Positions 1,310 through 62,184 of a DNA stretch of 64,000 nt are shown here, piece after piece. Source of the DNA: Lytechinus pictus (lineage: Eukaryota); NCBI RefSeq assembly GCF_037042905.1, contig NC_087251.1:31808001-31872000 (forward strand), given 5' to 3'. Both the position numbers and the translations under genes were made by a program. Below the pieces are notes generated by a model that searched no databases, was not told the DNA's origin, and saw only the letters and a list, made by a program, of their open reading frames with translations. Position 1 is the first letter of the stretch; each line of letters begins with the position of its first letter.

Positions 1310-1711
1310 AGCTAAATGAAAGTAGTTGCAGTAAAACACTGATTTCGTGAGAAAATCTGTAAAACCAAGGTTAAGTATTACTATATCATTGTGGATCTAG
1401 ATCATAGATCTGGTACAGTTACATAAACTGAACTTTGTGAAATCATAAAATCTAAGCTGAAAAACGATCACACTGAAGATCGCCAACACAGATAGGCACA
1501 CGTTGGACAGTGTATTATTATTGCTGGAATAAAGACCCGACGGAAGTGCCCAAATCCACGCTTATTTTGCTTATTTCTCAGCAATTACACAATTTCTTCC
1601 AGAATCCTTTGGCACATATTTTTTATTCATACAAACACACACTTGAGTGGTCATTATATTGGATTCTGTAAAAAGTCATTTTGAGATCGTTACCACAACT
1701 GGCATTTATCT
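1310..1711. mobile_element. TTAA-flanked Kolobok-like MITE, second family
   Basis: TTAA|AGCTAAATGAAAGT...ACTGGCATTTATCT|TTAA. A diverged copy lies at ~49620-49960. Confidence 0.7.
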
Positions 1712-2463
1712 TTAATGCATTATACCCATTTTGGTTTTCCTTTTCCTTTTACTATCATTAGACAACAACATGACTATTTTGCCACTTAAGACTGACGGTT
1801 TACTGGTAAAAATGTTTTTAAATGAAGAAATATTGATTTAGCAGAGGGTTCCCACTCTAATGCCATATGTTAACTGCTGAAAACAACTGTTTGGAACTGC
1901 AAAGGCATATCACGTTTGGAAGTAAACTTGTAGGAAGTAATTCCTCAAAAAGCTGTGTGCACCTGAATAGGTAGCCTAGCTTAGCCGGGGTAATAATAAT
2001 AGCAGGGCCCGCTGGGAGAATAGTTTTCGGAACTGAAGTGGCTACCCTGGGTAAATATACCGTTATTATTAATATTATCATTATTATTAATACATGTAGC
2101 TGAGACAGTGCTTTCTAGCTGTAATATGTAAAAAAAAAAACACTGTTTAATTTTTTTTTCAACGATGTTTACTATACAAACTTTACAGTAGACGGTTTAA
2201 AGAAAAGCATACAATCTTAAACAACAAAGTTGAATTTTAAATTCTTAATTCTCAACAAATTGAGCATAGTTGTTTAAACTGTTAAACAACTACTGTAAGG
2301 TTCATACATGTATATTAAACAGCATTGTATAAGATTTTAAACATTTTTTTCATGGTAGAACAAACTTACGACTAATTGCATAGACAGCAATGTACACAAT
2401 CAAGCATGAAAATCAATTGTACAGTGAATCATTAGGCATTGTGTTCATACAGAAAACAGGGTA

Positions 2464-2822
2464 CACGCTTAACTTCAAGGATTTAAAATTAATCCAGATC
2501 AGCTGTAAAAGGCCAGCTGAATATTGGATTCATTTTTAATATCACGGATTATCTTTTAAATCTAAAAAGATTTTATTTTTATATTTGTTTTTTTTTATTT
2601 CCATATAAAAATCATAAATAAACTACAAGAAAATCAAGAAAATATTTACAATGGAGGATAGCACATTTCAGTGATGTTTACAAAATATCACTGTTCCTCC
2701 ATGGGGTCTTAATTTAAAAAAATAACTTAAAATATCACAAGGTTTGAATACAAATATGATATTCCGATGGTCACTATTCACATCCAATCTGTATTTATTT
2801 GAAATCCTTGGGACTTGGAGTG
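2464..2822. mobile_element. TA-flanked MITE family X, copy 1 (contains an AT-rich insertion)
   Basis: TA|CACGCTTAACTTCAAGGATTT...AAATCCTTGGGACTTGGAGTG|TA. Alignable to 7966-8188 and 26769-27197. Confidence 0.75.
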
Positions 2823-2856
2823 TACATTTTATACAAAGGAGATAATTAATACTTAC

Positions 2857-2939
2857 GTCATTAACGCCTTCATCTTTATGGCCAGGACAGCGAGTAATGA
2901 TCTGCTCATGACATCTTTTGTGAACAACAACTGTACAAA
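2857..2939 (-). CDS. PRKCE: Novel PKC coding exon 5 (VCTVVVHKRCHEQIITRCPGHKDEGVND), end of C1A
   Basis: Acceptor aatttcag|TT and donor GAC|gtaagt. 83 nt, phase 1 to 0. Completes the His/Cys zinc ligands of C1A. Confidence 0.95.
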
Positions 2940-3631
2940 CTGAAATTTAAAAGAAGAGAATTATTAACATTTGGTTGTTAGTGGCATGGTTTACGACAAG
3001 TATTTCCAAATACAAACTCAAGCCAATGCATCCTTAATCACCTTTTCACAAAATGTGCCATATTAATTTGAAAAAGAACTCCCTTGACTCCCTTGATGAA
3101 ATAATCATAATTACATACACAAAATCTGCATATACAATGGTTTTGGTTAAATCAAACCACATTTGTGAATATGGACCTTTGAGAATATAGTAAATATCTT
3201 CATGAATACACTCTAAATGAATTTCAGTAATGCAAATTTCTCTACTGGAAATAACACAAATGACCATGATAAACAAATGGAGAAAATATGGAGGGAAAGA
3301 GCGATGGAGAAAAGAAAGCAATACACTGATCTAATAAACCTGGGCCCCCGAAACACAAAGGTTAGCGATTAATCATATGCTTGATTTTCACGACTGATTG
3401 TACATTGCAGTCAATGGAATCAATCGTAGAAAAATGTTCTACGATCATTGCTAAGTTTTGTGTTACGGCTCCAAGGTGTGATAGAAACCAAGTTAAATGA
3501 AGATGTGAAATTAAACACTGACACCAGTTTTGAAAGTGTCACAAAATGATAAAAAAAGGAAGAAGGAGATCTATGTGAGATATGAACATGTTAATCTCAA
3601 ATCATTGAAATAAAGAGTTCTTAGTTCTTAC

Positions 3632-3663
3632 CTTGGCATTGGTAACCTTGACGATAAAGACCC
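3632..3663 (-). CDS. PRKCE: Novel PKC coding exon 4, 32 nt micro-exon (W-GLYRQGYQCQ-V)
   Basis: Acceptor ttgtttccag|G and donor G|gtaaga. Phase 2 to 1. Continues the C1A consensus QGYQC. Confidence 0.93.
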
Positions 3664-4665
3664 CTGGAAACAAAAACAAGAAAACAAAATAAATATAAAG
3701 TACATGAATGATGAAATGACAATATATCAATAAGAACCAAAACAACAAAACGTACTGGAAAGCTTTTCACAGATGTACTATGAATTGCCTAAAAAGGAAT
3801 ATCAAAAGATTTTTGACTGCAGTCAAAATTTATGCCTCAGCCAAAAGAAAATTACATGCACAACTTAAAATAACTGCAACCTTTGACCTTGAGATTATCC
3901 TCCCTCACATATGCATACATGAGCCAAGTATGAAATTGATTTCCTTGACCAATTCTTCAGTAATTGCATGAATGAGATACTTACAGGTGTACTGTACATC
4001 TTCAAGTCATACAATATAATATATTTTCTTTCTTTAGTTTGCATATCAAAAAGTACCAGTGATGTCTTGTTCTCTGTACATGAGAGAAATATGACAACTT
4101 CACATTTCGTGCACAATTATACATTTTCATTACAGATTGTTTGTACATCAAAAACAAACATCAATACAGAAAATGATACATGATTCTAAATAAATTCCGA
4201 CCAGATAGCAGACCGAAAGCAAAGAATATGAAAGTTGTTGTTGTTGTTGATCGCCATGCAGGTGAGACAAAAATGAGGACAGTTTATTACTTCTTTTTTT
4301 TCTCAGGAATGAATATCAATATTAGATTATTGTGAGCCCCAATAGGAAACCCCTTAGAGACTCCATGGCAAAATATAGAACTCTCCTCCCACACACTCAA
4401 GCCCCAAGAGATGAGATAAGACGGCAGATTTGGGAAAATGTGGACGGAACACACACAAAAAAAAATGATAATGAGGAGGTTCTTGCGGGTGGATTGTAAA
4501 CAATCATGAAATCAAATTTGCTAAGCATTCAATGTCAGGCAGTTCTGTATCAATGCAACCCAGAAAATCAATTTCCCCCTTCTAAGACTCATATTTAAAA
4601 AAAAACTGTCTGGCAGTGGCATGATGAACAGCAGTTTCTTAGCCATTTGTTTATTAATGTTATCA

Positions 4666-5022
4666 GGTGGGTATTGCATAAAGCTGTTTGTAAGTAATAA
4701 CGACTTTAAGAACGACTGGTGATCCTTTCTTACGTGCTAAATAATCACCAATGAATGTTTAATGGGGAACATCATTACCACAAGAAAGGGTTATGATTTG
4801 TTCTTAAAGTCTCTCTTAACTTTATAAGAACAGCTTCATGAAACAGCCCCCTGGTGGGTGTTTCATACAGCTGTTCATAGGTGACTTTATGAATGACTTG
4901 TGATCCTTTCTTGTGGTACCTGATACACACTGGATTTCCATTGGCGTTGATTTAGTTCTCGAGAAAGGATCACCAGTCGTTTGTAAAGTCGCTCGTAACT
5001 ACAGCATTTTGAAACACCCACC
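4666..5022. mobile_element. Two abutting palindromic MITEs (GGGTGTTTCATAAAGCTGTT family)
   Basis: ~4666-4851 and ~4853-5022. Further copies at ~32354-32508 and ~39741-39918. Confidence 0.7.
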
Positions 5023-7965
5023 GGATTTGATTACAACCCAATGGCGAATTGACCTTACATAAATTGTTTTAGATTCATCACAAAAAAAAAGTCAAACTGG
5101 GAAATCAACACAACTTCAAATATCTGTCAATGAAAGATGGTGATAGCTGGATATAAAATTCCCCTCATTTCTTTGTTTCTTCCTTTTATTTAATAAAGGT
5201 TCATTCATTTTTTTTTTACTTAGTCTTCCCTGTTTTTAAATAACATTCATCTTATATGGAGAAAACATGAGTGCCTTTGACTTTCCAATTTAATAGGCCC
5301 ATAGGTATTAAATGACTCCTAATACATCATAAACAAGTGATTACTTGGGTGGTAAGAAAAACATTTAGATAAATTTATTCATTGTTGTAAATATGGTAAG
5401 TGAATATATATCTTCACATCAAGCCCTATGCACACAAAGGACCATCCTGTTTCATTACTAAATTACATGTAAATAGATATCTTATTGACACAAAAACACT
5501 GGAAAAAAAGGTCATTATTATAATTTTTCTACTTATTTGCATTGTCTATTGACTTGCAGCAATTACTATAGTTGCTAATCAACATAATGAAATGCTGTGA
5601 TTGACTATTATTCTCCAAGCATAGCTACTGCGGTACCTATGTCCATATACTGCTCATCACATTAAAAACATTCTTTTGCTTGCAGAATACTGAATATCAG
5701 AAAAAAACCAACATTATCATAATGGATGTCGAAATTCCCTTCCATCATTTTACATTAATATTTGTGTACTAGAAACCGGAGAAAGGAGAAGGAATAAAAG
5801 TGAGCGGTACGCTTAATTGCATAGCAGCTGGTAATTTGATAACTAGCGTACAATTGGTGGCTCCCTATTATTAGAACCGATTCAAAAGCAGTCAGGCAAA
5901 TGCAGCGCGGTGGAATACAAAAGACACTTTCGATCCTCCTATATAACAGCATGTGTAATATGAAGACTGTAAAAACAATATTTAAAAAAAAAGATTCAAA
6001 TACGCTGAAAATACCTTCGCATGCTTAAGACAGCATGCCTGAAAGCCAAGAATCTTTGATTTAATCGGAAAACCCTTAATCAACACCCTTGATCTCATTA
6101 ATTACATGTGAATTTAAAACTGAATAATAACTTGAATGTGAATACTGCATCCAATGTGTAAAGAATGGAATACATTTTTTTTTCTTTTTTAACAATGTGC
6201 AAGGGAAACAGAGCCACTGATAAATCAAATTTCCTGATCACAATAGAGAATTGGGGTTTTTTTTTTTTTTTTTTTTTTAGTACATAGCCTTTTTATGCAT
6301 CATTTCTCAGGGCAGTGTCTTGCTCTTTTTATAAAAGATTAGAAGAATGAAAAAAAAAACCTATCAACTGAATTGAGGTTCAGCTTGACAGTATTTTCAG
6401 GATAAATTGTCTCATTTAAGATCCATACTTTGACATCAATATCTTTTCCTGACATGTACAACACGCACAAGTAAAGAGAAAAAGAGGCTTTTAGCCCCAA
6501 TCCAGACTTTCCAATGGTAATCTATCTTCAGCAAAAGAGACAGAAATTGATGGGCTTTTGGCATTGCCCGGTGAAAACAAAACAGAAGGCAAAAAAAAGG
6601 TAGAAGAATACTCCAAGGCAGGAGGCCCAGAGAGCCTCGTGGCAAAGTATGTGAGGGGTCAACTCAAACAAGCTGCACGTTTCGCGTCCCAGTCAAACTG
6701 CGCTATGAACCTCTTGCTATGAATTATTAGCCGATATATATGTCAATGTTGAGTTCCACTAATGGATTAGGAATTATCCTGATGAATGCCAACATTTAAT
6801 CATGCCAGTAGTTCCCCTGGAAGCACTGCTAACGCTGAATTCACCATGACCATCTCTCATTACAGTTGAAAGCCAATCAAACCTTTTATTATAACGAAAC
6901 AACATCTATCGCTTCATAGAAGTAATGCTAAAGAATAAAATGGTCCTTTTTTTTCCGAGAAAACCTACCAGGTACAATCGATTTTTTAAATATAGCACCA
7001 CAATACAATGTTCCACAAAACATTGATGTACAGTGTGACCCAGAAAAAATAAAACTGAGAATTATCAATATCATAACATAAAAACCCAGACGAGAGCTAA
7101 AAATGAAATTGACAAAATGGAAAACCAGATTTTGATAAAATTCTGAGTGTGTTTGCTATCTTAATTTATAAAAGATATCATCATTTACACTTTCAGCTAG
7201 GAGAGCATCCCTTTGAAGGAGTTACTTTCTAGTTTCTACATTTGCAGGCGAATCAATCCTCAACCCCCCCCCCCCCCATGTATCTTTGCCCCTGTGATAC
7301 CATCAGGTAAACTAGGTAGTGATATTCAAAACTCATTATGCATTTTCAGTGAAATGAAAACTTTGAAATAAACCATTCAATCCAAGTGAAATAAATGCAT
7401 CAAAACTGAAACAACCCTTCAAAATGATTTTACTATCCAAACTACTTCCGATCATTTACGCATCTCATAAATTGTGATTGTTTTTTACATAATGCATGAC
7501 ATGGTTATGAAAAGGAAACTAAACACTGTATTTCTACTTCTTGACTATTTTATTTTTGACATCCTGTTCATCTCTCAGTGAAAATAATTGAATGAGTGAC
7601 TTTTCAAAACCAAAGGAGTCTGGACACATGCATAGTTTGTTCCTCCAATTTTGACCATGTATAGATAAATGTAATATAGGTAGCATGGCCCATCAGAATT
7701 CACAATTTAACTTTAATTTTATAATTTAACCCCCCCCCCTTTAATTCTGTCAATATTTGGGTACATTTTCAGTTCTAGAATTAATCCCTATCTACTTTGA
7801 CCCGTCTCAAAATTATTACATAATAATTGGCTTATAACTAAATATTATTAATTTCTAATTTTTTAATGTCATATTTTATGATATCTCTGTGAATATTTAA
7901 TCAATTTTCAGCAGAAATGTTAATATACTTCATTACCTTTTGGCTACATCAATGTACTCCTGATA

Positions 7966-8188
7966 CACTCTTAATTCCAAGGATGTAAAATAAATTCAGA
8001 AAGACTGTGAGTAGTGATCAGCCGAATATAGATTTTGGTTTAAACCTTGTGGATTTGGATAAAAAGCTTTAAGATTTGAATTTGAATCTTTTGAGATCGA
8101 AAAGTTAATCTTCAAGATTTTTTTTAAATTCAATATTCGGCTGGTTATATTCTCATCTGATCTGGATAAATCCTTGAAATTGAGAGTG
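7966..8188. mobile_element. TA-flanked MITE family X, copy 2 (opposite orientation)
   Basis: TA|CACTCTTAATTCCAAGGAT...ATCCTTGAAATTGAGAGTG|TA. Confidence 0.8.
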
Positions 8189-8214
8189 TACTGGAGCAAA
8201 CAGAAGAGACTCAC

Positions 8215-8371
8215 CAAATGAAATCTTGACAATGAGAACAGAATGTTGGTTGGCGCAGAAAGGTGGACATGAATTTGTGGCCGTTGACCTGGTGGACCCG
8301 TCTCCTGACGGCTCCTCGTCTTTTGTGCACCGCATTTTCACGCACCCGAAATACTTTTTCCTTCGGCGGTT
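8215..8371 (-). CDS. PRKCE: Novel PKC coding exon 3: pseudosubstrate ([12 protein letters not shown]) and start of C1A ([22 protein letters not shown])
   Basis: Acceptor tttgacacag|AA and donor TG|gtgagt. 157 nt, phase 1 to 2. Confidence 0.96.
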
Positions 8372-8658
8372 CTGTGTCAAAGAAAAGGGTGAAAACATTG
8401 TGAAATGATTATTATGGAGATAATACAAAGGTTGCTTTTTAAAAGAATTACTAATGAAATAGAAGGAAGCAATTGATTAGTTTGCATTGAAAGAAAGGTA
8501 ATTGATTCCAATCATCAGGCAATATTTGTCATGGGCATCAAACATCAAATCATGGAAAATTCACCCCAAAAATGTGTTTGATAGTAGTAAAATGGTGTAA
8601 AATGTTTAAACAAAAAAAAAACCTTGAACCCCAGCTACATATTCCTAACAAATCGTAT

Positions 8659-8960
8659 CATAATAATACCTATCATCGTCATCATCATCACCATGCACCA
8701 TCATCTTCACCATCATCATCATCATTACCATCATCATCATCATCATTACCACCATCATCATCATCATTACCACAATCATCATCACCATCACCATCATCAT
8801 CACCAGCATCATCACTATCATCGTCATCATCATCAAAATCAAAATCATCACCATCATCACCATCATCATCACCTTCACCATAACTATAACTTAATTCTTG
8901 TCATTTTTGCAGTTAGAATTAATTAACGATGACATAGCATCATCATCACCATCATCATCG
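8659..8960. repeat. (CAT/CAC)n microsatellite
   Basis: Visible trinucleotide repeat; explains the poly-His/Ser/Met ORFs. Confidence 0.95.
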
Positions 8961-9694
8961 ACAACAACTATGTCATGTTATCATGTGCAATAGCCTACAA
9001 ATTGAAGCAATGAAATTGGATTTCACAACAGCTGGAACCATGCTTCATGTTTTGACTTAGGCTTCTATAATTTTCATAAATTTTGAGGTAGGTTTACATT
9101 GTAACGTAAGCCAGCAAGAAGTGTAGAGGGCCCTAGCAACCGTTTGCTTAAATAAAATGAAACAAAACCTCTTGTTTGCACGCTGGTATGCACTACAGAT
9201 GTGTACTTACAGAGTGTTATTCCACAGATCATGAAAGTGTAATTCTTAATAAGATCCTGGAGAATTTATTTTTGAAAAACAAAATCATTTAAGATCTTAG
9301 GTATTCAGTTCCGGTTGGTTGGTTGGTTTAAATTCCAAAGGTGTGTGACAAAAGACAACAAACCCTTACTTATTTTGAATGCTCATTTGATAGAAAAGGG
9401 TTCTCTGAGTTAAAGATTTAATTTTTAAAAGTGCACATTGTAATTTGAATATACAAATAATATTAATATGAATGATAAAATTACAAATATAACAGATGCT
9501 AAGATCATGATAAGTTTCATTTTGTATGTGTGTTTCTTTTTCTTGCAATCAAGAGTCAATATTTCCATGATAAGAATGGCACATAACTTCACTGTAAACT
9601 TTGGGTGTTAAAACTGATATAAGTTGGTGTCCCCAGTAGACCACACCCTAAACGAGTAGAAATTTAACCCCATATAAAGATTGAATGAACATAC

Positions 9695-10126
9695 GACACC
9701 ATTCTCATTACAATCCCACAAACTGGTTTACTGGAAACCAGTTCAGGAAACCAGTTTGGAAGCTAGCTTTGCTAGCAATCCCATTTGATACCTGAAAGTG
9801 GATTTCAAAACCACTTCCCGGGAGCTATACGGAAAGCGGTCTTTTTGCTATGGGTACGCTCTCAGCTTCGCGCGAAATTCGAAACTGCAGCGTACAAATT
9901 CTACACCCAGCATGTGCGAAGATCGCTTCACGAAGAACGGTTGTGTCCTCACTTGCACTAAAACCAGTTTAATGAGGCAAAGCGATCTTCAAAACTACAT
10001 GTACATCGCGAGGTGGTTTTCTAAACCGGTTTAGAAGATTGTTTCCAAGACCACTTTGACCGTTCTCATTACACATTAAACTAGTTTCCATTAATCTAGT
10101 TTTAGGGCGGTAATGAGAACGGTGTC
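9695..10126. mobile_element. PIF/Harbinger-like MITE nested in a CACTG-terminated MITE (~9590-10250)
   Basis: TIR GACACCATTCTCATTA / TAATGAGAACGGTGTC with flanks TAC / TAA. The joined flanks restore GAACATAACAC, as in the uninterrupted copy at 21664-21902. Confidence 0.75.
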
Positions 10127-11000
10127 TAACACTAAAGAGTGTTTGAATAACAACTGTATGTGTTGTAATAACACCTTGGGGTGTTAAACTAACATTAAAT
10201 ATAACACTGAATGTGAAATGACCAGTTTGATCCTGAATATTTTTGTGTTAACACCTCAAGGTGAGTACCCCCCCCCCCCTCAATTACAAGTATGTTATTA
10301 GTTATCTACAGGTCATACTGAGTTAAAGGGGTTTTTTTAGGTTCAAAGTTCTTCGAAATAATGAATTAAATTAAACAGGCTACCCAACACACAGAGTAGC
10401 AGCCGAGGGTCTTGCAGCTAGACATAATCAGGGAAAATTCTCCTAAAACTCTAGATATCCGACAAACTACACATCAATCACGAGTATACACCTTGATCCC
10501 CAATTTAGATTCATAAATGCTTCCAGTCAAATAAACAGGTGCTTCATGTGATGAAGATGAATGACAAATTTAAAGAAGAAGTAGAAGATGGGTTGTTTTA
10601 ATATGTATGAACAATATTTTCCATGCACAAGTGAAGATGAATATTGTGACAATTCATCAATGCATAGTAGATATATGCATTAATTCACTGAGGTGCTAAC
10701 ATTTGGATGAATAAAATTAGTATTCTGTACCAACAAACCAGGGATTAGCCTGACCGAACTTAGTAACTTTTCATCAAAATTAATATTTTTCCAAACAATC
10801 CTATTTTTCATCATTTCATCAATCAGTATCATGGAGCACAAATGCACAATCAAATGCATTTTGCTCTGACTATACTACATTCTAGATCCATTCAGCATTT
10901 GTGTGCATGTTTACAAAACAATTTCATGTATTATTATATTATGTACATGTAAGTAGATATTTTGCTCCTACTATTTTCTTTTGTTCTTTTCAGATTTGAG

Positions 11001-11377
11001 TTATAATTTGTTTACAAATTTTCGGCATTACTCCTATAAGATCGGTATGCTCGATCTGTAATGAAAATCATAAGTCAGAAAAAATTGGAACCAGTGGGAT
11101 TCGAATCTGCCATCTACTGCTTTCCGGGCAGCGACTTAACCACCAGGCTATTCTGGTTCATGGCTAAGCCATGATGAATTTGAATTTGAATTCCAGTTCA
11201 TTGTGGCTTAGCCGTGAACCAGAATAACCTGGTGGTTAAGTCGCTGCCCGGAAAGCAGTAGATGGCAGGTTCAAATCCCACTGGTTCCAATTTTTTCCGA
11301 TCTTAAACAAATAGGAGTAATGCCGAAAATTTGTAAACAAATTATAATTTCCTCCTATTAAAGCCTCTTCATTTACT
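11001..11377. mobile_element. Palindromic element containing two divergent tRNA-like units
   Basis: Arms 11001-11037/11311-11347 and ~11075-11180/11196-11300 are inverted copies. Each inner arm has an A box (TA[G/A]CCTGGTGG), a B box ([G/A]TTC[G/A]AATCCC) and a T6 run. Confidence 0.8.
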
Positions 11378-13246
11378 AGATTTGAGTTAGTATAATTTGA
11401 ATGCCCTTTCATTATTTTGCATTCCTGTCATCATTTTTACAACAAACATTAATCATTTGTAATAGTTGACAGCTCTGATTTCAGTCTGAATATAATATTA
11501 TTCATGTTCACATAAACTATATAACTGTAAATTGGGAGATTTTCATTATTTTTTTACGAAGATAAAATTAAAACTAATGCAACAAATTCAAGGCACAAAA
11601 TGAGGGCTGACAAGGATCTACTAATATGGTCCCCTAAGTCTGCACAGTGCCCCTTGTCTGCGCACACGTGTATCTGCGCAATTCTAGTAAAAGAAGATAC
11701 GCGACAACCACAAAATTTACACATGCAATACATAGAAATACTTTCATTGAAAATCTGACTCAAAATGGTGGAAAACAGAGAATTTCAGGCATTTCATGTG
11801 ACGACCAGTCAAAATGCAGCCTTTCTCATCAAAATCCCTGAATCGTGTGTAAAGTGAATGGGTGCGCAGACATGGGGCACCATTATTTGTTCAATCTGAA
11901 AATGACTGGCTGAGGTTCACATTTTTATGAGTTTTTTGGCACAGTACTCATAAGAATTTAAGGAACACTATAAACTGAATTTTTGTTTGTGAAATTAAAA
12001 ACAAAAAAATCATGATTTAAATTTTTAAATGGGGGGCCCCCCTTCACACACAGTACTTAGAAAACTACTTAGAAATAGATTGAAGAAGGAAAAAAGAGAG
12101 GAAAATTTCAGAATAAGATGCAAATTCAGAATAAGATGACATGAATCACAAAACTGCAAATTGTACTTTTTAAAATATTTCTTGAACAAAGAAAAAAAGG
12201 AATAAAATTAAAAATTGCAACACATTCACAACAAAAACTGAGGGCTGACAATGATCTACTTCACGGTATTTATTAACAGGTTGAAGAAAAAAAAAGAGAA
12301 AGAAATAGAGAATATAATCAGGACAAGATGTATAATCATAACAACATGTGATTAATCTGAATAAGATGTGAAAACATTTCAGAAACAGAAATGAGAGTGC
12401 CCAGACATTGTGGAAGGATGTTTACCAATGAGCATGCTTTTATGCTTTAAAAATTGTCAGTCTGCGCTCATGAGATGTTGCTCTCAAACAGCATGAGCAG
12501 AGCATAATGTAGGAACACACAGATTCCATACACCACTACGTTACATCCCCTCATATACAACCGAGTCTACAACACACTCGGCAGAAACATAGTATACTGG
12601 CAGAGCACATCTTTCATGCTTGGGAATAGAACCAAATGTATGTGAATTAATAAATCTCTGGCAAGCCGATGGAAAGATGCTTGCCCTTTGGGAGGGGAGC
12701 TCTAATATTCATTGGTCTCGTCTATGTCCATAATGAAATTTATGATTAGCTCCTGCTCCCAGAAGCCAGGAAGATCTCTGCTATAAACCCAATGAAAGAG
12801 CTTGAGATGAAAGATTTAGAAGAAAAGTTTGAAAGAATTGTAGAAATCGGATGAAAGGAACAAGGTGTGAGGAGAGAAAGGTCGGAGGACGGTGGGGGGG
12901 GGGGATAGTGGGATGTAAACATCAAAGTATCTGGGAGGGGGGGCAAAGACTCTGGTTGCCAAGTTCATATCCACAAATGAGGGTAGAGTAACCAAGAAAA
13001 AAATCATAATCAGTTTCATTGGCATTATATGAGGGGCATGGATGTATTTCAGGGGTACTGTTTCATTTTAATACATTATAATGTACTTGAAATAGAATAA
13101 AAGAGGCCAAAAGACAGAGAGAGATCACAGAAATATAGAGAAATGAATCACATCAAAAAATGTGAAAGGGAAATGGAACTTTCAAACAATTCATACCTAC
13201 TTTTAATACAGGGGTTACATGTATCATAGAGCTGTTCATAAAGTAA

Positions 13247-14146
13247 AAACACGTGGAACGCCTCTGGCAGTCCTGCCTGCATTACGCGATTCAATACAGC
13301 AGCAGTGCTGACTTTGAAAATGACTATAAAATATCTATTACAAAAAAACACCATTCATGTAATAATAAAGATACATTCATTGACCCTAAATTACATTTGA
13401 CCTAAGACTTGTGACCTAAGACTTGTGCAAGATGATCAAAGATACTTGATTACCCATATGTCTGCATTTCGTAAACTATACCCATAAACTTTAAAAGTTA
13501 TGATGGCAATTCAACAATTATCCCCAAACATGGCCAAAGTTCATTGACCTTAAAATTTTAAATGACGTTTGACCTTGATCATATGAACTGAAACTTAAGC
13601 TGGGTGTTCAGTAATACTTGATTATCCTTATGTCCAAGTTTCATGAACTAGGTCCATATACTTTCTAAGTTATGATGACATTTCAAAAACTTAACCTTAG
13701 GATAAGATTTGATGTTGATTCCCCCAACGTGGACTAAGTTTATTGACCCTAAATGACATTTGACCTTGGTCATGTGACCTGAAACTCAGGCAGGATGTTA
13801 AGTAATACTTGAATCCCCTTATGTCCACGTTTCATGAACTAGGTCCATATGCTTTTTAAGTTTTGATGTCATTTCAACAACTTAACCTTAGGTTAAGATT
13901 TGATGTTGATTCCCCCAACATGGTCTAAGTTTATTGACCCGAAATGAAATTTGACCTTGGTCATGTGACCTGAAATTCAGGCAGGATGTTCAGTAATACT
14001 TGATTCCCCTTACATGTATGTCCACATTTCATGAACTAGGTCCATATACTTTTTAAGTTATGATGTCATTTCAAAAACTTAACCTTGGGTTAAGATTTCA
14101 ATGTTGGCGCCGCCTATAGTATTGCTCTGCTATGCAGGCAAGACAA
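13247..14146. mobile_element. HINE-like element, second copy (~191 bp units)
   Basis: Same 5' block (GTGGAACGCCTCTGGCAGTC), same tandem unit and same 3' end (CTCTGCTATGCAGGCAAGAC). Degenerate remnants lie at ~28515-28760, ~45660-46330 and ~4250-4272. Confidence 0.75.
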
Positions 14147-16439
14147 CAATGTGGCAAGCCAATTTTTCTGAGAATATTCATCAATTACATTAGCTTTAGT
14201 TGAGATATATGTTGATCAATATCTTAACTACCATTGAAATAGTTTTCTTATAATCTAAATACAGTAATATGCATGTGCATGTATCAGAAAAAACTTGTCG
14301 TTATGCATATTTCAGTCACTCGTATATTACAACTTTATGACACAACCCTTTTTTGGCAGCATCAGTCAGGGCTCAGGCACCAGTCGGGGTTTGACCATGG
14401 ATCTAGGTCCATGGTTTGACTTAGCCCTAAGTTAAAGCTTACATCTCTGTCAATGACACTTCTATCTTGCATCTCTTCTCTCTTTCAGCAACAGATCGTA
14501 CTATACTCTCTACATTCAACTTCTGCTCCTTCTCATCATTTCCAACAACAAAAAAAACAGACTGGCTTCAATTCTTTTTCTATCTCTTCTTCCACATCCC
14601 TAAATCAAATACCCTCCAATTATATGAACCATTACCTCAACTGACCAATTCAAATCTAAGCATCTGAAAAAAACCCACCTAAATTAAATCTTGCTTTATA
14701 CCTGAAACAACACGTTGTGGTTTAAGTATGGGAAGCCAAAAGTATCAAAATTTGTATTAAGTTGTATGTTTCTTATGTTTACTGTGCTCTTTCCTGATTC
14801 ATCGATGGTGAGGACAATCATCTATTTATACTTCCTAGACAATATGAAATATGATATCTCTACTGTTAGTGATTTATGTAACAATTGGCTATCCATACTT
14901 AAACCACAACTTTAAACCTGAGTTTAAGTTAAACCTGACTTCAGAATACGGGCCTTAGTATCCTATCGAAAAAGGCATTATACTCATTTATATAAATATA
15001 ACTAAGAAAAATGTGAACCATAGGTTGCATATTAATCATACTTTGGGGACATACGTGTAACCCCATCTCCAACCAAAATGTTATCAAATTATCTATGATC
15101 CATGCTACTTCTACAATATCAAACATTATTTAAAAAAAAAGAAAAACCTGACATTTATATTAATGATGTCTTTATGCCTAAGGTGCTATGGGACAAGAAT
15201 TGTGAATGACGTCAAACACACAGGCTCACTTCCTTCATATATATGATCCAATCAATAACTTACAAAAAAAAACTATTTTCAGCAGTTTCTATCAATTAGT
15301 CGATTTCATTAATACCACAAGGTTTTAATGTTAATTTGGAATAGGCTTGAAACATAACTTTTTTTTTACCACTTGTGCCTGCCAATGATTTTTTGGCACA
15401 GACTGGGGGTAATGGAACAAAGAAATATACAAGAAATTCAGTGTCACCAAAAACTATGAAATTTAACCATTTTAAAAAACTACATTTACTTTTAAATCTA
15501 ACATCTACATTGAAACTCTCACATTTAATTTCAAAGCTTTACATCTCATCTTTCGTTTTGGTAAATCCTCCACCATTATGACAATTCATTACTAGATTAT
15601 GAGTTTGTATATGCCCTAAAACAGTCATGATTCTAATTCCATTCATCCATATTCAAAACAGAAATATTCCCTCCACTGGCAACACCAGAGACATATCAAA
15701 ATTACTGCATATAAATATTAACAGAAAATATTGAAACACATGTATTGCAAAACAACATGAAAAGGAATTAGCAAAATAGATTACCCTTTAAACTAAAGAC
15801 AGAGAGTGAGAAACAAGTAAATTGAAATATTGCTGAAAACAAAAGTAAACTCTAAGATGGAGGATGGAAGAGACCTTGTGGGGCAGAAGAAGAAGTTAAA
15901 AGGAGATGTGAAAGGTGAAAGATAAAAAAAATAGAAATTTTGTCCTATTGGATAACTTTGGTAATTTCATATCAAAAATTTGTTTTGGAGGGGTGCCAAA
16001 AACATCTGCATATTCTGTTCTTTTATATTCTTAAAAAACACTCAGGCAAGCAACAGGCTGAAAATTTGCTTTTGTGTCAAATGATTTGTAAATTTGGGAA
16101 CATATGCATACAATCTTCATGGTACCCTAGTACAGATAGAAAGGACAGACTATGCAACTGACTTTGAAGTTAATTGTAAATTTCAAAATTAAAAATATAA
16201 TATATAATGGTATAAATATCAAATTGGTTGTATTTTATCCTCTAATGGTTGGCAAGCATTTTGAAACAACAATGAATTCATAAAATGCCGAGCCGTTGTA
16301 TATTATCGCCCATCACCATGTTCAGCAGTATCAATCTCTTGTGCTGATACATCACACATCTGTATTCTTATGCCAATCACAATCTATCACCACTTGTGTG
16401 ACATTTGTGCTATATAGATAACATGTCACGATAACATCA

Positions 16440-16715
16440 GGGCCCCGTCTTACAAAGAGTTACGATTGATCCGATCAACCTCAACTATATGGAAATCCAT
16501 CATTGTCATCATTTCTTTCTACAAGAAATTTATACAATGTCCTATGTGAACTAAGAGAAGCAGAGAGAATTTTCAACAAACTGATGATTGTATGAATATA
16601 CATTATTATATCTAGATAATATTTCGATCAAACACGCATGTTAGATATTGATGTTGCTGGCTTTCCATAGTTGTGGTTGATCGTATCAATTGCAACTCTT
16701 TGTAAGACAGGGCCC
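16440..16715. mobile_element. Palindromic MITE (GGGCCCCGTCTTACAAAGAGTT family)
   Basis: Long TIRs. A second copy in opposite orientation lies at ~39920-40191. Confidence 0.75.
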
Positions 16716-18061
16716 TGAATGGCATTGATCACCAATGGTTGTAAATGAGCGGTGCTTTGATTGTACATGTACATACTGTACACTGCAGTATCATTTGTAT
16801 TGTGACGTAACACCACGTCAAAATGGACAATGAATGTGCATTGGCGCACATCAATTGTTACATTGCTGTCAATAAGGAACATAAAACATAAAAGATCACA
16901 TGTGATGATAATGTGTGAATAACATGTTACTGATCAACACTGGTGATTGATAGCATTATTATACACCGTGAGTAGTGATAACATCTGAAAATACATGTAT
17001 TCCTTATCAATGAAAATAATTAATTGAAAAAACATGCTCCAATTTCAGATCAATTGTTTCAGCTATTTCAAATAGTCCATCCTACATGTATATAAGCCCT
17101 ACCCCAAGAAAGGAAAATATTCTTCTAATGTAACAGAAATATCTAAAATGGACAATTATTTCAATTAAACACAATCACAATGATGAAAACAAACTTAAAC
17201 AATCAAAGATTATAAGTACTATTAAAGTATTTAAAAAGTACATGTGAATTATCTATTTGCTTCCAACCAAACTGCATTGCATTCCTTTCAATATATTCTC
17301 ACACAAATTCATTAAGTCATGATAATGTTATTTCCAACCCATCTACTCATTGGTGTCCCTCTATAAAGCATTAATGACCTTATAAAATCCCCCCACGCAC
17401 ATGAGATCCACTTGGGATAACTGAATTACAGAACTATTGATATAGGTATGAAATTGCATTGAGAGGCATAAACCAATTGCAAAGTGTAGAGAAATTGATG
17501 TTGGAGCCAGTCAAGCTTGCTGCGAGCAGAAAGGCATTGACAGTGTGATGTACCAAGTATATATAGAGTCGTACGTTATACACAGTCTTCAAGATGATTG
17601 AGGTGGACAGATACCCCTTTACGGATTGTCATGCACGTTGCTCCGTGCGAGATGCAAGCTTCTGTGATAACCCATACTGATTCATATGCCTTGTATAATT
17701 TAAATAAGCGGAAATTACATCACATTTTCATGGTCAATCACTTAAAATCAACTAAACATTGGAATTTTATAAAGTTAAGAAGGGAAAATGAGGAAGAAAA
17801 AAAAAGATCCAATGGAACTGAAAGAATATGTACACACAGAATGTAGGGAGAGGAAATTATATTTTTGTGCAATTCTAAACAGTTCTATCCATGTCTTCAC
17901 CAATGAGAATGCTGGTGATGTCATATTCTAGCTCATTCTTTTATATTTCATTATATGAAATTATAATCAAATTTCGTCCTCCAATATTGCAAAAATTGGA
18001 CTGACTATTGATTTAAAGATAATCTATTTCAGGGAGACATTTCTACAAACAAAATATTGTT

Positions 18062-18422
18062 TGATGATAAAGATGATGAAGATGTTGCCAGATTATGAGG
18101 AGAAAGAGGAGGAGGATGATGATGATAATGATGATGATGATGATGGTGATAGTGATGTTGATGAATGATGATGATGACGATGACGATGATGAAATGATTG
18201 TGATGATGAGATGGTTGTGATGATAATGACAAGATTATTGTGATAATGATGATAATGATATAATTGTGGATAATGATGAGAAGACTGTGATGGGATGTAA
18301 TGAGTACGATGATCATGGTGATAATGATGATGATGATTACTGTTATGGTGATGGGATGATTGTGATGATTGTGATGATCATGAGAAGGAGAACGATGACG
18401 ATGATAGCAATGACGATGCTGA
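18062..18422. repeat. Degenerate (GAT)n microsatellite
   Basis: Visible trinucleotide repeat. Confidence 0.9.
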
Positions 18423-18940
18423 CACATCCAAAACCAATCCTCTGTTGGAAATTGACTCTCCTAAGCTCAAACATTGTGTATGGGTTTAAATTATTCAAGC
18501 CTCAAGCGAGCCCTAAATGCACTGCAATGCATCAGTGGACTCTGTTTGAAGTGGCCCACAAGTAGAGGACCCAGTAGCATTTGTTAACAGTCAAATTCAC
18601 GGCAATGTTTTCTAAATACACAGACCTGGTTTACCATGCTCACGTCACATTTGCCTCATGGTGATACATGATCCAGAAATCATTTAATTTTAATCCATGC
18701 TAACCTCTGTTAATTCAAAACTAATCATTCGTTATCTTGTTGTATTATCATAGATCTGAAGGGGTTAATAATTGATCACATACATGTAAAGTCATTTTTT
18801 TAAATGAACGTACACCTAGTCACTCTTACTTCCAACATCCATTCTCTTTCTTTTCCATCAACATCAACCCCTAGATTTTAATATAATTTTTGTACAGCAC
18901 TCTTCTACAGGTGAGGATTCCCTCCTTCCACAATTAAATC

Positions 18941-20720
18941 AAGTGGCATCATGAGCCCAAAAAATTTAGGGGGGCCAGATATGGAGTATCAGGCAAAATT
19001 TATAAAAAGTTGTGAGTGAGCGAAGCGAGCGAGCAAAAATGTTGACATTTTTATTTAGACAAGTGGAGCGCCTCTGGCAGTCTCACCTGCATTGCGTGAT
19101 TCAATATAGCAGCAGTGCAGACTTTGCAAACTACTATAAAATAATTATTCACAAAAACACCATATAATGATACAATACTACGTTCATTGACAATAAATGA
19201 CATTTGACCTTGATCATGTGACCAAAGTCTTGTCAGTGATACTTGATTCCTCCTGATGTCCACATTTCATAAACTATGTCCATAAACGTTGAAAGTTATG
19301 ACGGCAATTTAAGAATCACCTCCAACATGGCCAAAGTTCATTGACCTTAAATGACCTTTGACTTTGGTTACATGACCTGAAACTCGCACAGGATGTTGTT
19401 CAGTGATACTTGATTACTCATGTCCAAGTTTTATGACTTGACCAATACACTTTCAGAGTTATGATGGTAATTCAACAAATACCCCCAATATGGCCAAAGT
19501 TCATTGACCTTTAATGACCTTTGACTTTGGTCATGTGACCTGAAACTCGCACAGGATGTTCAGTGATACTTGATTACTTTTATGTCCAAGTTTTATGAAT
19601 CAGATCCATAAACTTTCAAAGTTGTGATGGTAATTAAACAAATACCCCCAACTTGGCCAAAGTTCATTGACCCTAAATGACCTTTGACCTCAGTCATGTG
19701 ACCTGAAACTCGCACAGGATGTTCAGTGGTACTTGATTACTCTTATGTCCAAGTTATATGAATCAGATCCATAAACTTTCAAAGTTGTGATGGTAATTAA
19801 ACAAATACCCCCAACTTGGCCAAAGTTCATTGACCCTAAATTACCTTTGACCTTGGTCATGTGACTTGAAACTCAGGCAGGATGTTCAGTGATACTTGAT
19901 TACTTTTATGTCCAAGTTTTATGAATCAGATCCATAAACTTTCAAAGTTAAGATGGTAATACTCGCAACTTGGACAAAGTTCATTGACCTTAAATGACCT
20001 TTGACCTCAGTCATGTGACCTGAAACTCGCACAGGATGTTCAGTGATACTTGATTACTCTTATGTCCAAGTTATATGAATCAGATCCATAAACCTTCAAA
20101 GTTGTGATGGTAATTAAACAAATACCCCCAACTTGGCCAAAGTTCATTGACCCTAAATGACCTTTGACCTTGGTCATGTGACTTGAAACTCAGGCAGGAT
20201 GTTCAGTAATATGTTATTACCCTTATGGCCAAGTTTCATGAACTAGGTCCATACACTTACAAAGCTATGATTACATTTCAAAAACTTAACTTTAGGTTAA
20301 GATTTTGATGTTGATTCCCCAACACGGTCTAAGTTCATTGACCCTTAAATTACCTTTGACCTTAGTCATGTGACCTGAAACTCACACTAGATGTTCAGTA
20401 ATACCTGATTAACCTTATGTCCAAGTTTCATGAACTAGGTCCATATACTGTCATTTGAAAAACTTAACCTTTGGTTAAGATTTGATGTTGACGCCGCCGT
20501 TGGAAAAACTCACCTATAGTCTCACTCTGCTATGCAGGTGAGACAAAAATCAAATTTTGTGATAGTTTTTTACATAATATTCAGAAAATAATGTCTCACC
20601 CTTCTCTCTTTCCTTTTCTCTTTTTTTCCTTGGTCATGAAAATAGGGGCGGAGGGAGGTGGGGCAAGTGCCTCCAAAGGCCCGCACCCACCCCCCCCCCC
20701 CCCCCATCCGTATGCCAGTG
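18941..20720. mobile_element. hAT-like MITE interrupted by the HINE
   Basis: Left part AGTGGCATCATGAGCC...GGGGGCCA and right part ...CCCCCATCCGTATGCCAGTG align to the intact copy at 55693-55895. Confidence 0.6.
19058..20547. mobile_element. Helentron-associated (HINE/DINE-like) element with an internal tandem array
   Basis: Subterminal inverted repeat GTCTCACCTGCAT (~19080) / ATGCAGGTGAGAC (~20532), a terminal hairpin and an A-run end. About 8 tandem units of ~155-190 bp (GACCTTGGTCATGTGACCTGAAACTC...). Confidence 0.75.
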
Positions 20721-21663
20721 GCAGTGCTTAAATCACATGGTATCCTATGAAATCTGCACACATGGGAATTTGTGACTGAAATATTACAAATATCATAACT
20801 TCAGATCAGACGATCGTGAGTCAAGTGTAATAATATAATATTCATATTAACTTTGATTTTCCTATCTGATTTGTATTTTTCTTCTTCTCCTTCCATGGAT
20901 TAACATGGCAATGCTCAAAGCATCAAGTTCTGTGAGCATGCCTGATGATTCTACATGGATGACATTTGGCATTTAGGGCTGAATGTGAGAAGGGGAGGGA
21001 GAGAAGGCACGACTATGGGCTCAGTGCTAAATGTAATGGTGAATGTATTGAAAGCATTCGGGTAGTACCATCACTGCTTACACCATGTAGCATATCAATG
21101 CTTGGCACTGAAAAAAACACCCAATTATCCATTCTCCTAACCTTGATCCATTTTATGAGACCTATTTTTCATACTTAGTACTTGATTTCTTTGTCCTTTG
21201 AATCAATGCGTTATATTATTCAAAATGTATTCAAGACATTTGTTAAACAATATGTCTGAATGTTTGAAGACTGAAGTATGTTATTGAATGTCAACAGAGA
21301 CATGAGGGAATAGTGCTGTCAGTTGATTTTTGTAAGCAACCATGGTAACAGGTCCCATGACATTTGCTCGGGCAACAATTGCTTTGCTATACATTCCACA
21401 TATTAATCGAATGACTGAACTTCAACCCTGGATTTAACACTACACCCTGCCCTACACCTAATAAACAAGAAATCTTTAACCCTACTGCAACCCTAGCCCT
21501 ACATATTAGACAAAATCCAGAGCAATTGTTGCAGGAGCACATGCTGTGTCACCTGTAAAACAGTTTGAATTTGGTAGATGAAGATGGAATTCTTCACAGA
21601 TCCTATTCATAGATTAGGAAAATTGTTGAATCTTACAAGTTGCCCTGCACATTATGCGGTTCC

Positions 21664-21902
21664 CACTGTAATAACTGTGGTGTTAAAACTTACACCAGTT
21701 GGTGTTAATAGAGGACCACACCCTGAGGTGTTAAAATGATACCCTAAGGATTGAACATAACACCAAAGAGTGTAAATGTAACAACCAAATGTGTTGAAAT
21801 AACACCTAAAGGTGTTAAACTAACACTGTCAATTTAACAACGGTGTAAAATAACTGGTGTGGTCCTCAATGTACACCGGTTAACACCACAATTTTTGCTG
21901 AG
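21664..21902. mobile_element. CAC-terminated MITE with TGTTAA/TAACACC subrepeats (CACTA-like)
   Basis: CACTGTAATAACTGTGGTGTTAA...TTAACACCACAATTTTTGCTGAG. Confidence 0.65.
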
Positions 21903-24900
21903 CATGAACATTTCCACTCTGTCTGGTAAAGGAAGTACAGGGTTTTGCTATGAACTTCTGGCTAGTCAAACCAGTCTGTCAGAGCCGAGATTAAGAAACA
22001 AACAGAGCAAATAATTCATTACAGGAGACCTCGACACATCAATGAAAATTTGATTTGCCCGCAGGAGACCCATCCCTGGTGAGCCAAGCCAGCTATAGAC
22101 CAAACCTGCTTGCCAGCCTGCCCTGGAGTGTGGACATACAACAAGACTGGTAAATATGGACAGCAAATATTCTTATTTAACCGCGTTCCCTTTTCTTACA
22201 AATTAACATCCATGGAATAATGAACATAGATGAAGTATCATAATGACTAGCTTACACATATTTCCTATGCACCATTCATTAGTTCAGTGGGAAATTGAAA
22301 ACATACAAGATACTGTATAGGCCTATACTTGATTTGCTATTAATTATAATTTTGATGTTACATGAGTTAAGATTTAAAGGTCAAGTCCACCCCAGCAAAT
22401 AGTTGATTTGAACAGACGGAGAGAAATCAAACTAGGATAACGCTGAAAATTTCATTAAAATCAGATGTAAAATCATGTGATGTCATTTCAAAGTCTTGCT
22501 TAATTTCAGGAAGCACATCATGGTTAGTGAGAGAATCAATGACATCACACACTCAACAATATAAAAATATACTAGGAATAAGGGGGATTAAGCCCCCCCC
22601 CCCCCATCCAAATTAGCCCCTTAAATGAACAGTCGGTACATACGGAAATATGGATTCAAGGAGACAGAGAAAAAGCTCCCATTCTGCAGAAAACATTTCA
22701 ACTATGATATGTGCATGCATGTCTCAAGGCTGAGATTATTTTTTAGGGGAAAGTTCATTGAAAATAAAGGTGTTTCAAGAAAAGCAGAAAAATACAGAAA
22801 AATATTGGTAAAGCTTCAGCGAATATATCCAAAGACTAATTTAGGAGTAATGATTTGGTTTTTTTTTTTAAATTGAACAGCTGTCCCAAAGAGCATGTAA
22901 TATTGATTCCATACATTTTGTTTTTAATTATGATTACTGAAACTATTTACTTACAGAAAGGTATGAAATGATGTGACCGATTATTTAATGGAGCAAGAGG
23001 GGGAGGAAAATATAGTAATACCATTTTTCAGCTCACATTTCATGATTTCACTTTACCAGAACTAGATCTACTGTGATAGTACAGTGATAATTTTACAGAT
23101 TTTCTCTGTAAAATCTAAAAAAAGACACTAATATGCACACTGCACCTGCGTTACCTCTGCAAGGAGAGAAAATATATCTCACTCAAATTTGAGTACATTG
23201 TTGGTTGCAATACCATGGCAACGAATCTGTGGCTAATTCAAGTAATTGGCAGCCGTCATTGGTAACATTTGCTGTCATTGCGTATTTGTCGATCACCATG
23301 ATTATGTGGTTTGTGTTTGTAGGTGAGTTTAAGGATATTGTGTGTTTCCTTCATGCCAAAAACAAATACAAATTGAGCATCAAAATAGCATGTAATCTTA
23401 AGAAAACAACCAAAACATTGGCATGATCCATTGGAGATAAAAGCACCACTGTATGTGATATAACAAAATGCCCACATTCAAGAAAATTATTTGAGTCCTT
23501 TCCTGGCTCAGTGGCTCTGATTCTGATTGTTTTAAAAAGAAAACATTTTTTAGAAAAAAACATGAATATTAAAACTCCTTTTCTGAGACAACATCCAAAA
23601 TCTTGAATGTAAGAAAAATATTTGACTCTAGAAATAAATTCATTCGCGTTGTACTAGGTTTTCTTCTCATCTGTCTGAAATTGTTTGTCTTAACTTTACA
23701 CTGTTTATTTTTCATATATGTTTGTTATTAGCCCCAATTTGTATCCATGTTGTAGTGCTTCCAACGCTTTGAGTCTTGAAAACAATGTCTGAACAATCCA
23801 TACAGAATACTGCTATAAGAATTTCATAAAACGAAAACACTGCATTTGTAATAGGGCTCTAAGGAGATTGTGTTTCATCACAAAAATGACACATACATGC
23901 CACACTCTTCATACCATGAATGTGAATTAGATTATTCACCTGTATTCACCTTCATGATAGTCACTCCATGTGTGAAAATTGAGGTATTTCTTAACCTGGG
24001 ACGTGACCTACATTTTTCCTATGATAGTGCTCCCATAAAGGACCCAGCACCATGGTTATAAATTATGCAGTTCTACTGTACAGCAGTCTTAGCTATACCT
24101 TAGGATTTAAACAGTACTTAAATGATAAACATATCAAAAAGAAAGACTGGTCTATATTAAAGCATCAGACTTAATTTGCAAAATTTGAATTGACTGAGAC
24201 AGGGGCAAGGACATTGAAACACAAAATTAAAGTTTTAAAAGTAAGGACAGTCCTTTGACATTTTAAATGAGATTTCAATTCATTTTTTTCATTTCATTTA
24301 TCAATTCAACCATTTCTAAAAACAAGATAAATATACAAGGAATATTCAAAGAACAATACAGAAAAAATACAAAGTAGAAAAAAAAGGGTTAGGGAGTCCA
24401 AAGAAGCAAGAAAAACAGGTTGATTATGAAGGGCAAGTATCATAAATATGAAAGAGATAAAAGCAATCGGTAAATACATTCTTACAATAATTATGAAGCA
24501 TAAGACTAGACTATCACCTCTTTTTTCATCTCTTTGCATGATTAGAATTCTCCATGTACCTCCCACCTGTATTTCTAAGTGATCTCTTTTAAAGGGCACG
24601 CCCTCTCAAGATGTCTCAATTCTCACTAAGAAGTAGGTTTTCCCCTTGTGTGTGCATTTGCCAACCCACTCTCGGCACATCTCGACCCCCTGATCCCTTT
24701 CAGCACGTATCTCCTCAGCGTTGCGTTTTTTAAAATTTGATCTGCCAACTCAATTATAATTGACATGTATGTAATGGCACAACATCAACTTCACTCTTCC
24801 CCTGGTGATCTACGGTGGATGATCCAAGGATTAAAGAGACTGAGCTCATCTTCTGATCCGAAATCCCTTTACCTTATCCACATTATGCAAAGCTTTCAGG

Positions 24901-27197: not shown

Positions 27198-27251
27198 TAC
27201 ATCCACTTTGATATAAATTTTGTTGTAGTGTGAAAGGGGGTAAGCACTCAC

Positions 27252-27312
27252 CTTCTGAAGATCCCTGGAGCTCTATGATGACGTGTACCTTCCCAGCAGG
27301 TTCCAGGTCAAT
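27252..27312 (-). CDS. PRKCE: Novel PKC coding exon 2 (IDLEPAGKVHVIIELQGSSE), end of C2
   Basis: Acceptor cctgttttag|ATT and donor G|gtgagt. 61 nt, phase 0 to 1. Matches the PKC-epsilon IDLEPEG.V.V.I.L.GS motif. Not in the ORF track. Confidence 0.95.
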
Positions 27313-62158: not shown

Positions 62159-62184
62159 GGCCGGGCTCTTGCCTCCCCCACCCC

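Follow-up and report, generated by a model that had tools for sequence, protein, structure and literature searches.

The window analysed here is a stretch of 64,000 nucleotides of Lytechinus pictus DNA, and its positions 11001–11377 raise a question: what kind of mobile element leaves behind a long hairpin with a tRNA-like module in each arm, a tail on one side only and a short duplication of the flanking DNA? A preliminary description of the locus proposed a foldback element with two Pol III units. We consider another answer the best explanation, with a probability of about two in three: the locus holds one insertion of an abundant non-coding retro-unit of ~290 bp that bears a decayed tRNA gene, is mobilized by Penelope-like elements (PLEs) and resembles a retrozyme without its ribozyme. 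Statements from the literature refer to the accessible parts of the sources cited.

Structure of the insertion

The insertion is made of two copies of one unit, both truncated at the 5′ end and joined head to head. Its parts, and the intron that holds it, are as follows.

8372–27251, minus strand: host intron, putative intron 2 of a novel-type PKC (epsilon/eta-like) gene
11001–11187, minus strand: inverted, 5′-truncated copy of the unit, without the tail
11001–11037, minus strand: 'outer repeat', the 3′ portion of the inverted unit, with 100% identity to 11311–11347
11046–11078, minus strand: 33-nt spacer after the T6 run, which the left arm shares with the family and the right arm has lost by deletion (from the arm alignment and public runs)
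11079–11084, minus strand: T6 run, Pol III terminator-like
11088–11159, minus strand: tRNA-like module of the left arm; A box with 1 mismatch, B box without its first G, T stem broken
11185–11190, no strand: axis of the head-to-head junction (11187/11188); hexamer one CpG-type change from the palindrome TTCGAA
11188–11377, plus strand: direct, 5′-truncated copy of the unit, with the tail
11216–11287, plus strand: tRNA-like module of the right arm; A box with 2 mismatches, B box fitting GWTCRANNC, T stem broken
11291–11296, plus strand: T6 run, Pol III terminator-like

The two outward-facing tRNA-like units and their T6 runs lie exactly where the preliminary description had placed them. It had also enclosed them in outer inverted repeats of 37 bp, and these do exist, with 100% identity over 37 nt, beside an inner inverted repeat of 112 nt with 92% identity (11075–11186 and 11189–11300). 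They are not separate terminal repeats, however: the 'outer inverted repeats' are a portion of one repeated unit, and the right one stands 30 nt away from the target-site duplication. The whole structure folds with −261 kcal/mol (z −33), a value equalled by 0 of 100 shuffles.

The arms differ by nine substitutions in 109 nt and by reciprocal deletions between the T6 run and the outer repeat (33 nt in the right arm, 6 nt in the left). Five of the nine differences are of CpG type, counting one CpG hit oppositely on the two arms and the change at the axis, where we infer an ancestral TTCGAA; such differences suggest ageing in methylated DNA. Both arms carry the family-minority letters at 11238 and 11335. 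Given these shared letters and the CpG-type differences, two different RNA templates for the arms are not needed; a figure that bears on that idea is the P of about 0.05, at 8% divergence, for 0 mismatches in 37 nt.

No ORF of at least 90 aa overlaps the element, and none for RT with GIY-YIG was found in it. Its 3′ end has neither poly(A) nor simple repeats, the longest A run in the element being 3. A second copy was not found within the 64-kb window. Palindromic elements of other kinds are common across the window. Searches with the element gave 0 matches in the viral and 0 in the genome contig collection; six loci in the metagenome contig collection match over 20–30 nt only and were treated as chance. 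Rfam miRNA matches (mir-3938 and others) fall far under the gathering scores and reflect the hairpin.

As to the host gene, exon 1 gives a match to the C2 domain of PKC epsilon (E 1.5e-24), and exons 27252–27312 and 8215–8371 are predicted from the sequence to join in frame. The putative intron 2 between them would measure 18.9 kb, with the insertion ~2.6 kb upstream of exon 3. Since the host gene runs on the minus strand, a plus-strand micro-exon at the duplication was discarded. No effect on the PKC gene was shown, and the copy is most likely inert.

The tRNA-like modules

Scored against a consensus, A and B boxes are present in both modules, but they are damaged: the left module has the better A box, the right one the intact B box. 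The majority letters in public sequencing runs agree with the box consensus at 11227 and 11273. The predicted centroids contain acceptor, D and anticodon-like stems but no T stem; the module folds (z about −1) are no better than those of shuffles. ARAGORN reports 0 tRNAs in the 64-kb window, and the best Rfam tRNA-clan match, to tRNA-Sec, reaches 19.4 bits against a gathering score of 47. With no intact T arm and no recognition by tRNA models, the modules are not working tRNAs, as the preliminary description had held. The module may resemble tRNA-Arg; a phage blastn search for the tRNA isotype gave one match, in a portal gene at E 2, which is ascribed to chance.

The T5–T6 run behind the module is retained across the family in public runs. 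A plain Pol III transcript would thus end before the 3′ part of the unit, the part that is always inserted, so the mobilized RNA would be a read-through, Pol II or antisense transcript and not the ~75-nt Pol III product.

The family in public sequencing runs

Twenty of the 24 public runs listed contain 0.18–0.36 of the query words, and two organisms are represented. Four runs were compared with positions 11148–11747: X1 and X4 (DNA), X23 (raw RNA) and X18. Depth in the contig runs is summed contig depth and not copy number. Over 11188–11367 it amounts to 55,000–290,000 in X1 and 174,000–849,000 in X4, with 36.6 and 92, respectively, on the unique flank, which in either DNA run is an excess of three to four orders of magnitude. 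After correction for a contig overlap that may reach 31-fold, we estimate ~250–9,000 units, a range to be taken as an order of magnitude only. The unit is present in the second organism (organism B) too.

Across the left side of the junction (11148–11167) depth is 217 in X1, or 0.15% of the arm depth of 140,433; it is 228 in X4 and 0 in both X23 and X18. In all four runs the family runs on upstream of 11184 with other letters, the loose ends before 11184 sharing 30 nearly identical letters (agreement 0.68–0.96), and family sequence precedes the tRNA module for 58 nt or more. The fold-back belongs to this insertion, one-off or rare, and is not shared by the family. At the level of the family, the claim of a foldback element that carries two Pol III units finds no support (junction depth of 217 against 55,000–290,000 in X1, and 0 in raw RNA), in a comparison that is weakened by the tendency of short-read contigs to lose palindromic junctions.

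A non-autonomous DNA family with tRNA arms that moves as a palindrome, of the foldback/MITE or of the tyrosine-recombinase (Crypton/DIRS-like) kind, is a very improbable reading. It would account for the near-perfect palindrome with its identical 37-bp outer repeats, and would suit a window rich in other palindromic elements. It sits badly with a junction that is not common to the family, with family sequence that continues upstream of the axis, with tandem units, with a tail that belongs to the unit and with a right repeat 30 nt from the duplication. Neither the shared terminal inverted repeats nor the internal layout of a MITE or foldback family was found; the foldback/MITE reading is largely refuted, and for the tyrosine-recombinase idea, raised in the preliminary description, no support was found. 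The same description had allowed for a single-copy inverted duplication of an ordinary SINE head. The fold-back is indeed one-off or rare, but the duplicated part is not an ordinary SINE head: the family extends upstream of the module, T6 follows the module and there is no A tail.

The units are arranged in tandem. A head-to-tail joint, 11378 to 11184, occurs in four of four runs (1, 1 and 2 contigs; 8 reads from 6 starts). The 150-nt reads have 41 letters on the shorter side of the joint, so the part of the unit that is missing from this copy is at most 68 nt long; hand arithmetic on one X4 contig gives 63 nt. The two 30-letter consensuses that read into the missing part do not overlap. The tandem period is about 290 bp, the 33-nt spacer included.

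Coverage falls towards the 5′ end: in all four runs the 5′ bin of the tRNA block stands at 0.22–0.49 of the 3′ bin depth. The tail, likewise in all four, stands at 0.50–0.64 of the preceding bin. Edge effects alone are unlikely, since depth does not drop beside the internal deletion edge, and the halving over the tail suggests a recurrent boundary at 11347, one that is placed by depth and is absent among the 24 loose-end rows listed of 656. Behind 11378 the DNA-run consensuses follow the family for about 12 letters before they decay, which makes it probable that many copies end ~12 nt beyond the end of this copy. Three further joints with a strand switch (11205/11298, 11237/11326 and 11238/11317), found among the 15 listed of 37, are compatible with head-to-head pairs that have other truncation points. 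Joint 11148/11258, an edge effect of the stretch compared, was disregarded.

LTR elements have TG...CA ends. The loose-end consensus behind 11378 brings such elements to mind, as in the RNA run it reaches CA after 11 letters, with TGG next, and in the DNA runs it decays from there on; the CA-TGG spot, in a consensus with an agreement of 0.57, resembles an LTR end followed by the start of a PBS. We give only a very small probability to a rearranged back-to-back copy of a miniature LTR retrotransposon of the Helenus/TRIMp3 type, which has a tRNA-like sequence in its LTR and forms tandem arrays. A tRNA-like module sitting in a tandem unit fits that description, a purine-rich stretch lies upstream of 11184, and tandem arrays of Helenus are known (PMC10886601). 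Yet the duplication of animal Helenus is 4 bp (PMC10886601) and here it is 8–12 bp; this copy does not have TG...CA ends, and no TG follows the purine stretch. Agreement upstream of 11184 stays at 0.68–0.96, so no LTR starts there. The CA-TGG spot is explicable as a small hairpin, and the 5′-to-3′ coverage gradient is unexpected for an LTR element.

Family reads in X23 lie on both strands (282 versus 218). A large share of them (87%) pass into unlike sequence and none lies on the unique flank of the locus; family sequence occurs in long RNA from other loci, and neither Pol III RNA nor editing at this locus follows from these reads. The first mate is on the plus strand in all 8 tandem-joint reads, which would mean antisense RNA were the library a dUTP one, and one locus could explain the 8 reads. 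Genomic tandem copies explain them as well as circular monomer RNA would.

Ends of the insertion and the putative empty site

The features at the ends of the element are as follows.

10992–11003, plus strand: left copy of the duplication, its last 3 letters shared with the inverted end of the element
11310–11359, plus strand: stem-loop (−10.3 kcal/mol) composed of the outer repeat and the beginning of the tail
11348–11377, plus strand: one-sided tail, 30–31 nt (11348–11377/8), part of the family unit
11378–11389, plus strand: right copy of the duplication
11391–11399, plus strand: target DNA adjoining the duplication, 9 nt identical to the inverted end, 11002–11010

The duplicated 12-mer, AGATTTGAGTTA, occurs exactly twice in 64 kb, at the two positions above, and 0 of 100 shuffles give two matches; random window pairs of the same sizes share at least 12 nt in 5 of 2984 cases. 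The flanking duplication of the preliminary description is thus real, but its length is better given as 8–12 bp: the last three letters overlap the left end of the element, and the first letter equals the next letter of the family unit.

The tail was first described as unpaired and ~30 nt long. It has no partner on the left side, but in the unit RNA the 12 nt at its beginning are paired with the start of the outer repeat. The 3′ side of the stem-loop at 11310–11359 contains the end point of the inverted copy. The fold of 11300–11378 has a z of −2.2 (10 of 300 shuffles equal it); the hand-trimmed hairpin, a selected window, has a z of −4.2.

The 9-nt identity between the target and the inverted end, noticed post hoc, is matched at 30 of 63,371 control positions (0.0005) and may be a priming or nick-site homology. 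It lies exactly at the end of the inverted copy, which would also suit twin priming by an ordinary LINE (CR1, L2 or RTE) on RNA transcribed from a tandem SINE-like satellite; microhomology would let the second target end anneal internally, and the tail length would be accidental. This reading is improbable. Sea-urchin tRNA SINEs do pair with CR1/L2 LINEs (PMC3747384), and a variable duplication with 5′ truncation suits any target-primed mechanism. The 3′ end without poly(A) or simple repeats speaks against it, however, as does the tRNA module, which is internal and followed by a terminator and not a 5′ head; moreover, tail depth is halved in all four runs and the tail length is within the PLE range.

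Two contigs of single-copy depth, one of 1410 bp in X1 and one of 206 bp in X4, begin to match the right flank precisely at 11378, where the right duplication copy starts, with 937 and 87 unmatched letters, respectively, to the left. An empty allele appears to be present at the locus in two DNA samples, to judge from these contigs; the filled allele is absent from the pieces listed. The differences between the arms and the duplication argue against a read-chimera artefact.

The same data bear on the idea that a single unit was inserted and that a later local fold-back, through replication or repair, added an inverted copy of part of it. The junction, which coincides with a palindrome, is locus-specific, and at 11238 and 11335 both arms have the family-minority letters, as such an event would have it. 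We nevertheless judge it very improbable. The duplication encloses both arms; the contigs are consistent with a clean empty site in two samples; the left arm keeps the spacer that is missing from the right and so was not copied from the present right arm; and no single-unit allele occurs among the few alleles sampled.

Probable insertion by a Penelope-like element

The features expected of a PLE insertion are found together at this locus: an inverted, 5′-truncated head-to-head copy, a one-sided tail of 30–31 nt, a family organized in tandem, a duplication of 8–12 bp in AT-rich DNA, a near-palindromic axis and a putative empty site. A typical Penelope insert has an adjacent inverted 5′-truncated pLTR, a 31-bp tail, a target-site duplication (TSD) of 8–10 bp and palindromes at the junctions (PMC3846280), and Naiads have a tail of 30–40 bp at one end and no canonical hammerheads (PMC8557442). 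In vitro, both strands are cut and extended at an AT-rich target; the tail is delimited by two RT start sites, and the start lies at a stem-loop (PMC11167929). Tail length, layout, palindrome and TSD length all match published PLEs, with tandem units and 3′-biased coverage in addition, and the Penelope-like lead of the preliminary description is supported.

We propose the following scheme, in which the enzyme, the template RNA and the template strand are inferred. A GIY-YIG-type nuclease would nick both strands of AT-rich DNA, 8–12 bp apart, and each 3′ end would prime reverse transcription, with a multi-unit RNA or two RNAs as template. One start would lie at the end of the tail (11377), the other 30 nt upstream (11347), in the stem-loop and aided by target homology. 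The two cDNAs would meet and join at the self-complementary TTCGAA. The hairpin would then be a by-product of insertion, in a copy that aged in place through CpG decay and two small deletions.

Among the points against a PLE is the lack of a hammerhead core, as most PLE clades carry one. No hammerhead was matched in Rfam at E 10 or better, and with the variant core of PMC4209133 neither a C3–G8 nor a U3–A8 core was found on either strand of this copy; for the ~63 nt of the unit that this copy lacks, hammerheads were looked for by eye on the two 30-letter consensuses. Neither an autonomous partner nor a sequence link to a PLE came to light: four 12-nt motifs of the unit had 0 matches in the supplement of PMC8557442 (Naiad/Chlamys), and motifs of the unit sequence had 0 matches in published papers.

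A bolder version of the PLE reading is rather doubtful. The unit would belong to an undescribed class of Penelope-dependent retroelements, with several families in the genome, in which the tRNA-like module replaces the retrozyme hammerhead. The module would serve as a cut site for the host RNase P/Z, releasing monomers from multi-unit transcripts, or alternatively as a TFIIIC-bound promoter or chromatin element, and the likeness of the target to the tail boundary of the element would help to select the nick.

Comparison with published elements

The same head-to-head inverted 5′-truncated copy is seen in Pen2a_Av (PMC3846280), Naiad/Chlamys (PMC8557442) and Poseidon PAc (PMC11167929). The likeness to PLE inserts extends to a palindrome or overlap at the junction, a one-sided tail of 30–40 bp, a TSD of 8–10 bp, an AT-rich target and tandem organization. 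These elements are likened to ours by layout; unlike them, our unit has no RT/GIY-YIG ORF and carries a tRNA-like module with T6.

Non-autonomous head-to-tail Chlamys elements have been reported (PMC8557442). MRC1 and Chlamys-N4 (PMC8557442, PMC9977147) resemble our unit in being non-coding, multicopy and head-to-tail, with PLE-type ends and with short 5′-truncated insertions in introns (PMC9977147). They differ in that they come from green algae and share their 3′ ends with a known autonomous family, and a tRNA module is not described for them in the accessible text of either source.

Animal non-LTR retrozymes likewise consist of tandem non-coding units of a few hundred bp with low GC and have TSDs of more than 4 bp (PMC7229834; Li, Clavereau and Pollet 2026, 10.64898/2026.07.22.740005). 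Their dependence on PLEs has been proposed in both sources. A type I hammerhead in every unit is their defining feature, and none was found in ours. The accessible parts of the two sources describe no tRNA-bearing unit among retrozymes, and those of Li, Clavereau and Pollet 2026 do not mention tRNA, urchin or polymerase III.

Helenus and TRIMp3 (PMC10886601) are also non-autonomous, with an internal tRNA-like sequence and possible tandem arrays; they have an LTR pair, a PBS, a PPT and, in animals, a 4-bp TSD, in contrast to the 8–12 bp and the lack of TG...CA ends here. Echinoderms are not mentioned in the accessible part of the main text on Helenus. Sea-urchin tRNA SINEs such as SURF1/SINE2-4c_SP (PMC3747384) share with our family tRNA-derived A and B boxes and a dispersed repeat with a TSD. 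By their description they are set apart through a 5′ tRNA head and CR1/L2 partners, whereas our module is internal, bounded by a terminator and tandem.

Biological significance

The layout of the insertion is the published PLE signature and is unsurprising; the cargo is the point of interest. LINEs are known to carry SINEs as passengers, and LTR elements to carry TRIMp3. Our results point to a little-described kind of PLE hitch-hiker. In the searchable literature no description of tRNA-bearing PLE passengers was found, and Repbase or Dfam may already hold the family. In annotation, palindromic copies of this kind are readily mistaken for MITEs or tRNA genes. A family of short units that is polymorphic, has empty alleles and reaches a high copy number offers many natural insertions for study. 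These bear on a question named in the accessible parts of PMC8557442 and PMC11167929, namely the way in which PLEs produce tails and inverted copies.

Repeats beyond the insertion

Another abundant repeat lies at 11628-11880, 240 bp downstream of the insertion at 11001-11377; it has 19-nt inverted repeats, is MITE-like and was found in all four public runs, organism B included. Among the other repeats of the window, the ~610-bp palindromic element with TTAA on its flanks is one that we take to be Kolobok- or piggyBac-like, and the 346-bp inverted pair may mark the two termini of a transposon that inserted recently. Some of the short palindromic elements stand side by side or are nested. The SINE-like element is not related to the ~290-bp tRNA-bearing unit, two 5'-truncated copies of which make up the insertion.

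Repeats near the insertion and elsewhere in the window
11647-11665 and 11862-11880: 19-nt inverted repeats of the downstream repeat
46472-47081 and 57833-58454: ~610-bp palindromic element, two copies, 87% alike
22372-22508 and 53679-53778: fragments of this element
4639-5048, 16438-16718 and 39735-40193: short palindromic elements, mutually related
59033-59378 and 61834-62177: inverted pair, 346 bp, 97% identity, 2.5 kb between
50276-50490, minus strand: tRNA-headed SINE-like element, B box intact
1930-1995 and 52637-52740: relatives of the SINE-like element
13249-14150, 19059-20550 and 28523-28763: tandem repeat family, ~160-180 bp
30466-31716: array with a ~70-75 bp period, distinct from the ~160-180 bp family

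Architecture of the ~290-bp unit

Upstream of 11184, the unit sequence (run consensus) continues into another B-box/T-loop-like motif, which has the junction hexamer at its centre, and for this reason the unit may hold remnants of a second tRNA module. By-eye inspection revealed that ~12 nt of the spacer following T6 (11046-11078) are complementary to the family consensus upstream of 11184, and that a different upstream part of the unit could pair with 7 nt of the tail. Judged from sequence, nested stems in the unit RNA could surround the tRNA module. The complementary stretches include an AP-1-like heptamer.

Allele divergence and age of the insertion

Between 11378-11740 and the other allele (record 4 of the DNA run X1), 27 letters and 14 gap letters differ over 363 bp. 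Intronic polymorphism here is very high, and therefore a polymorphic insertion is not necessarily young.
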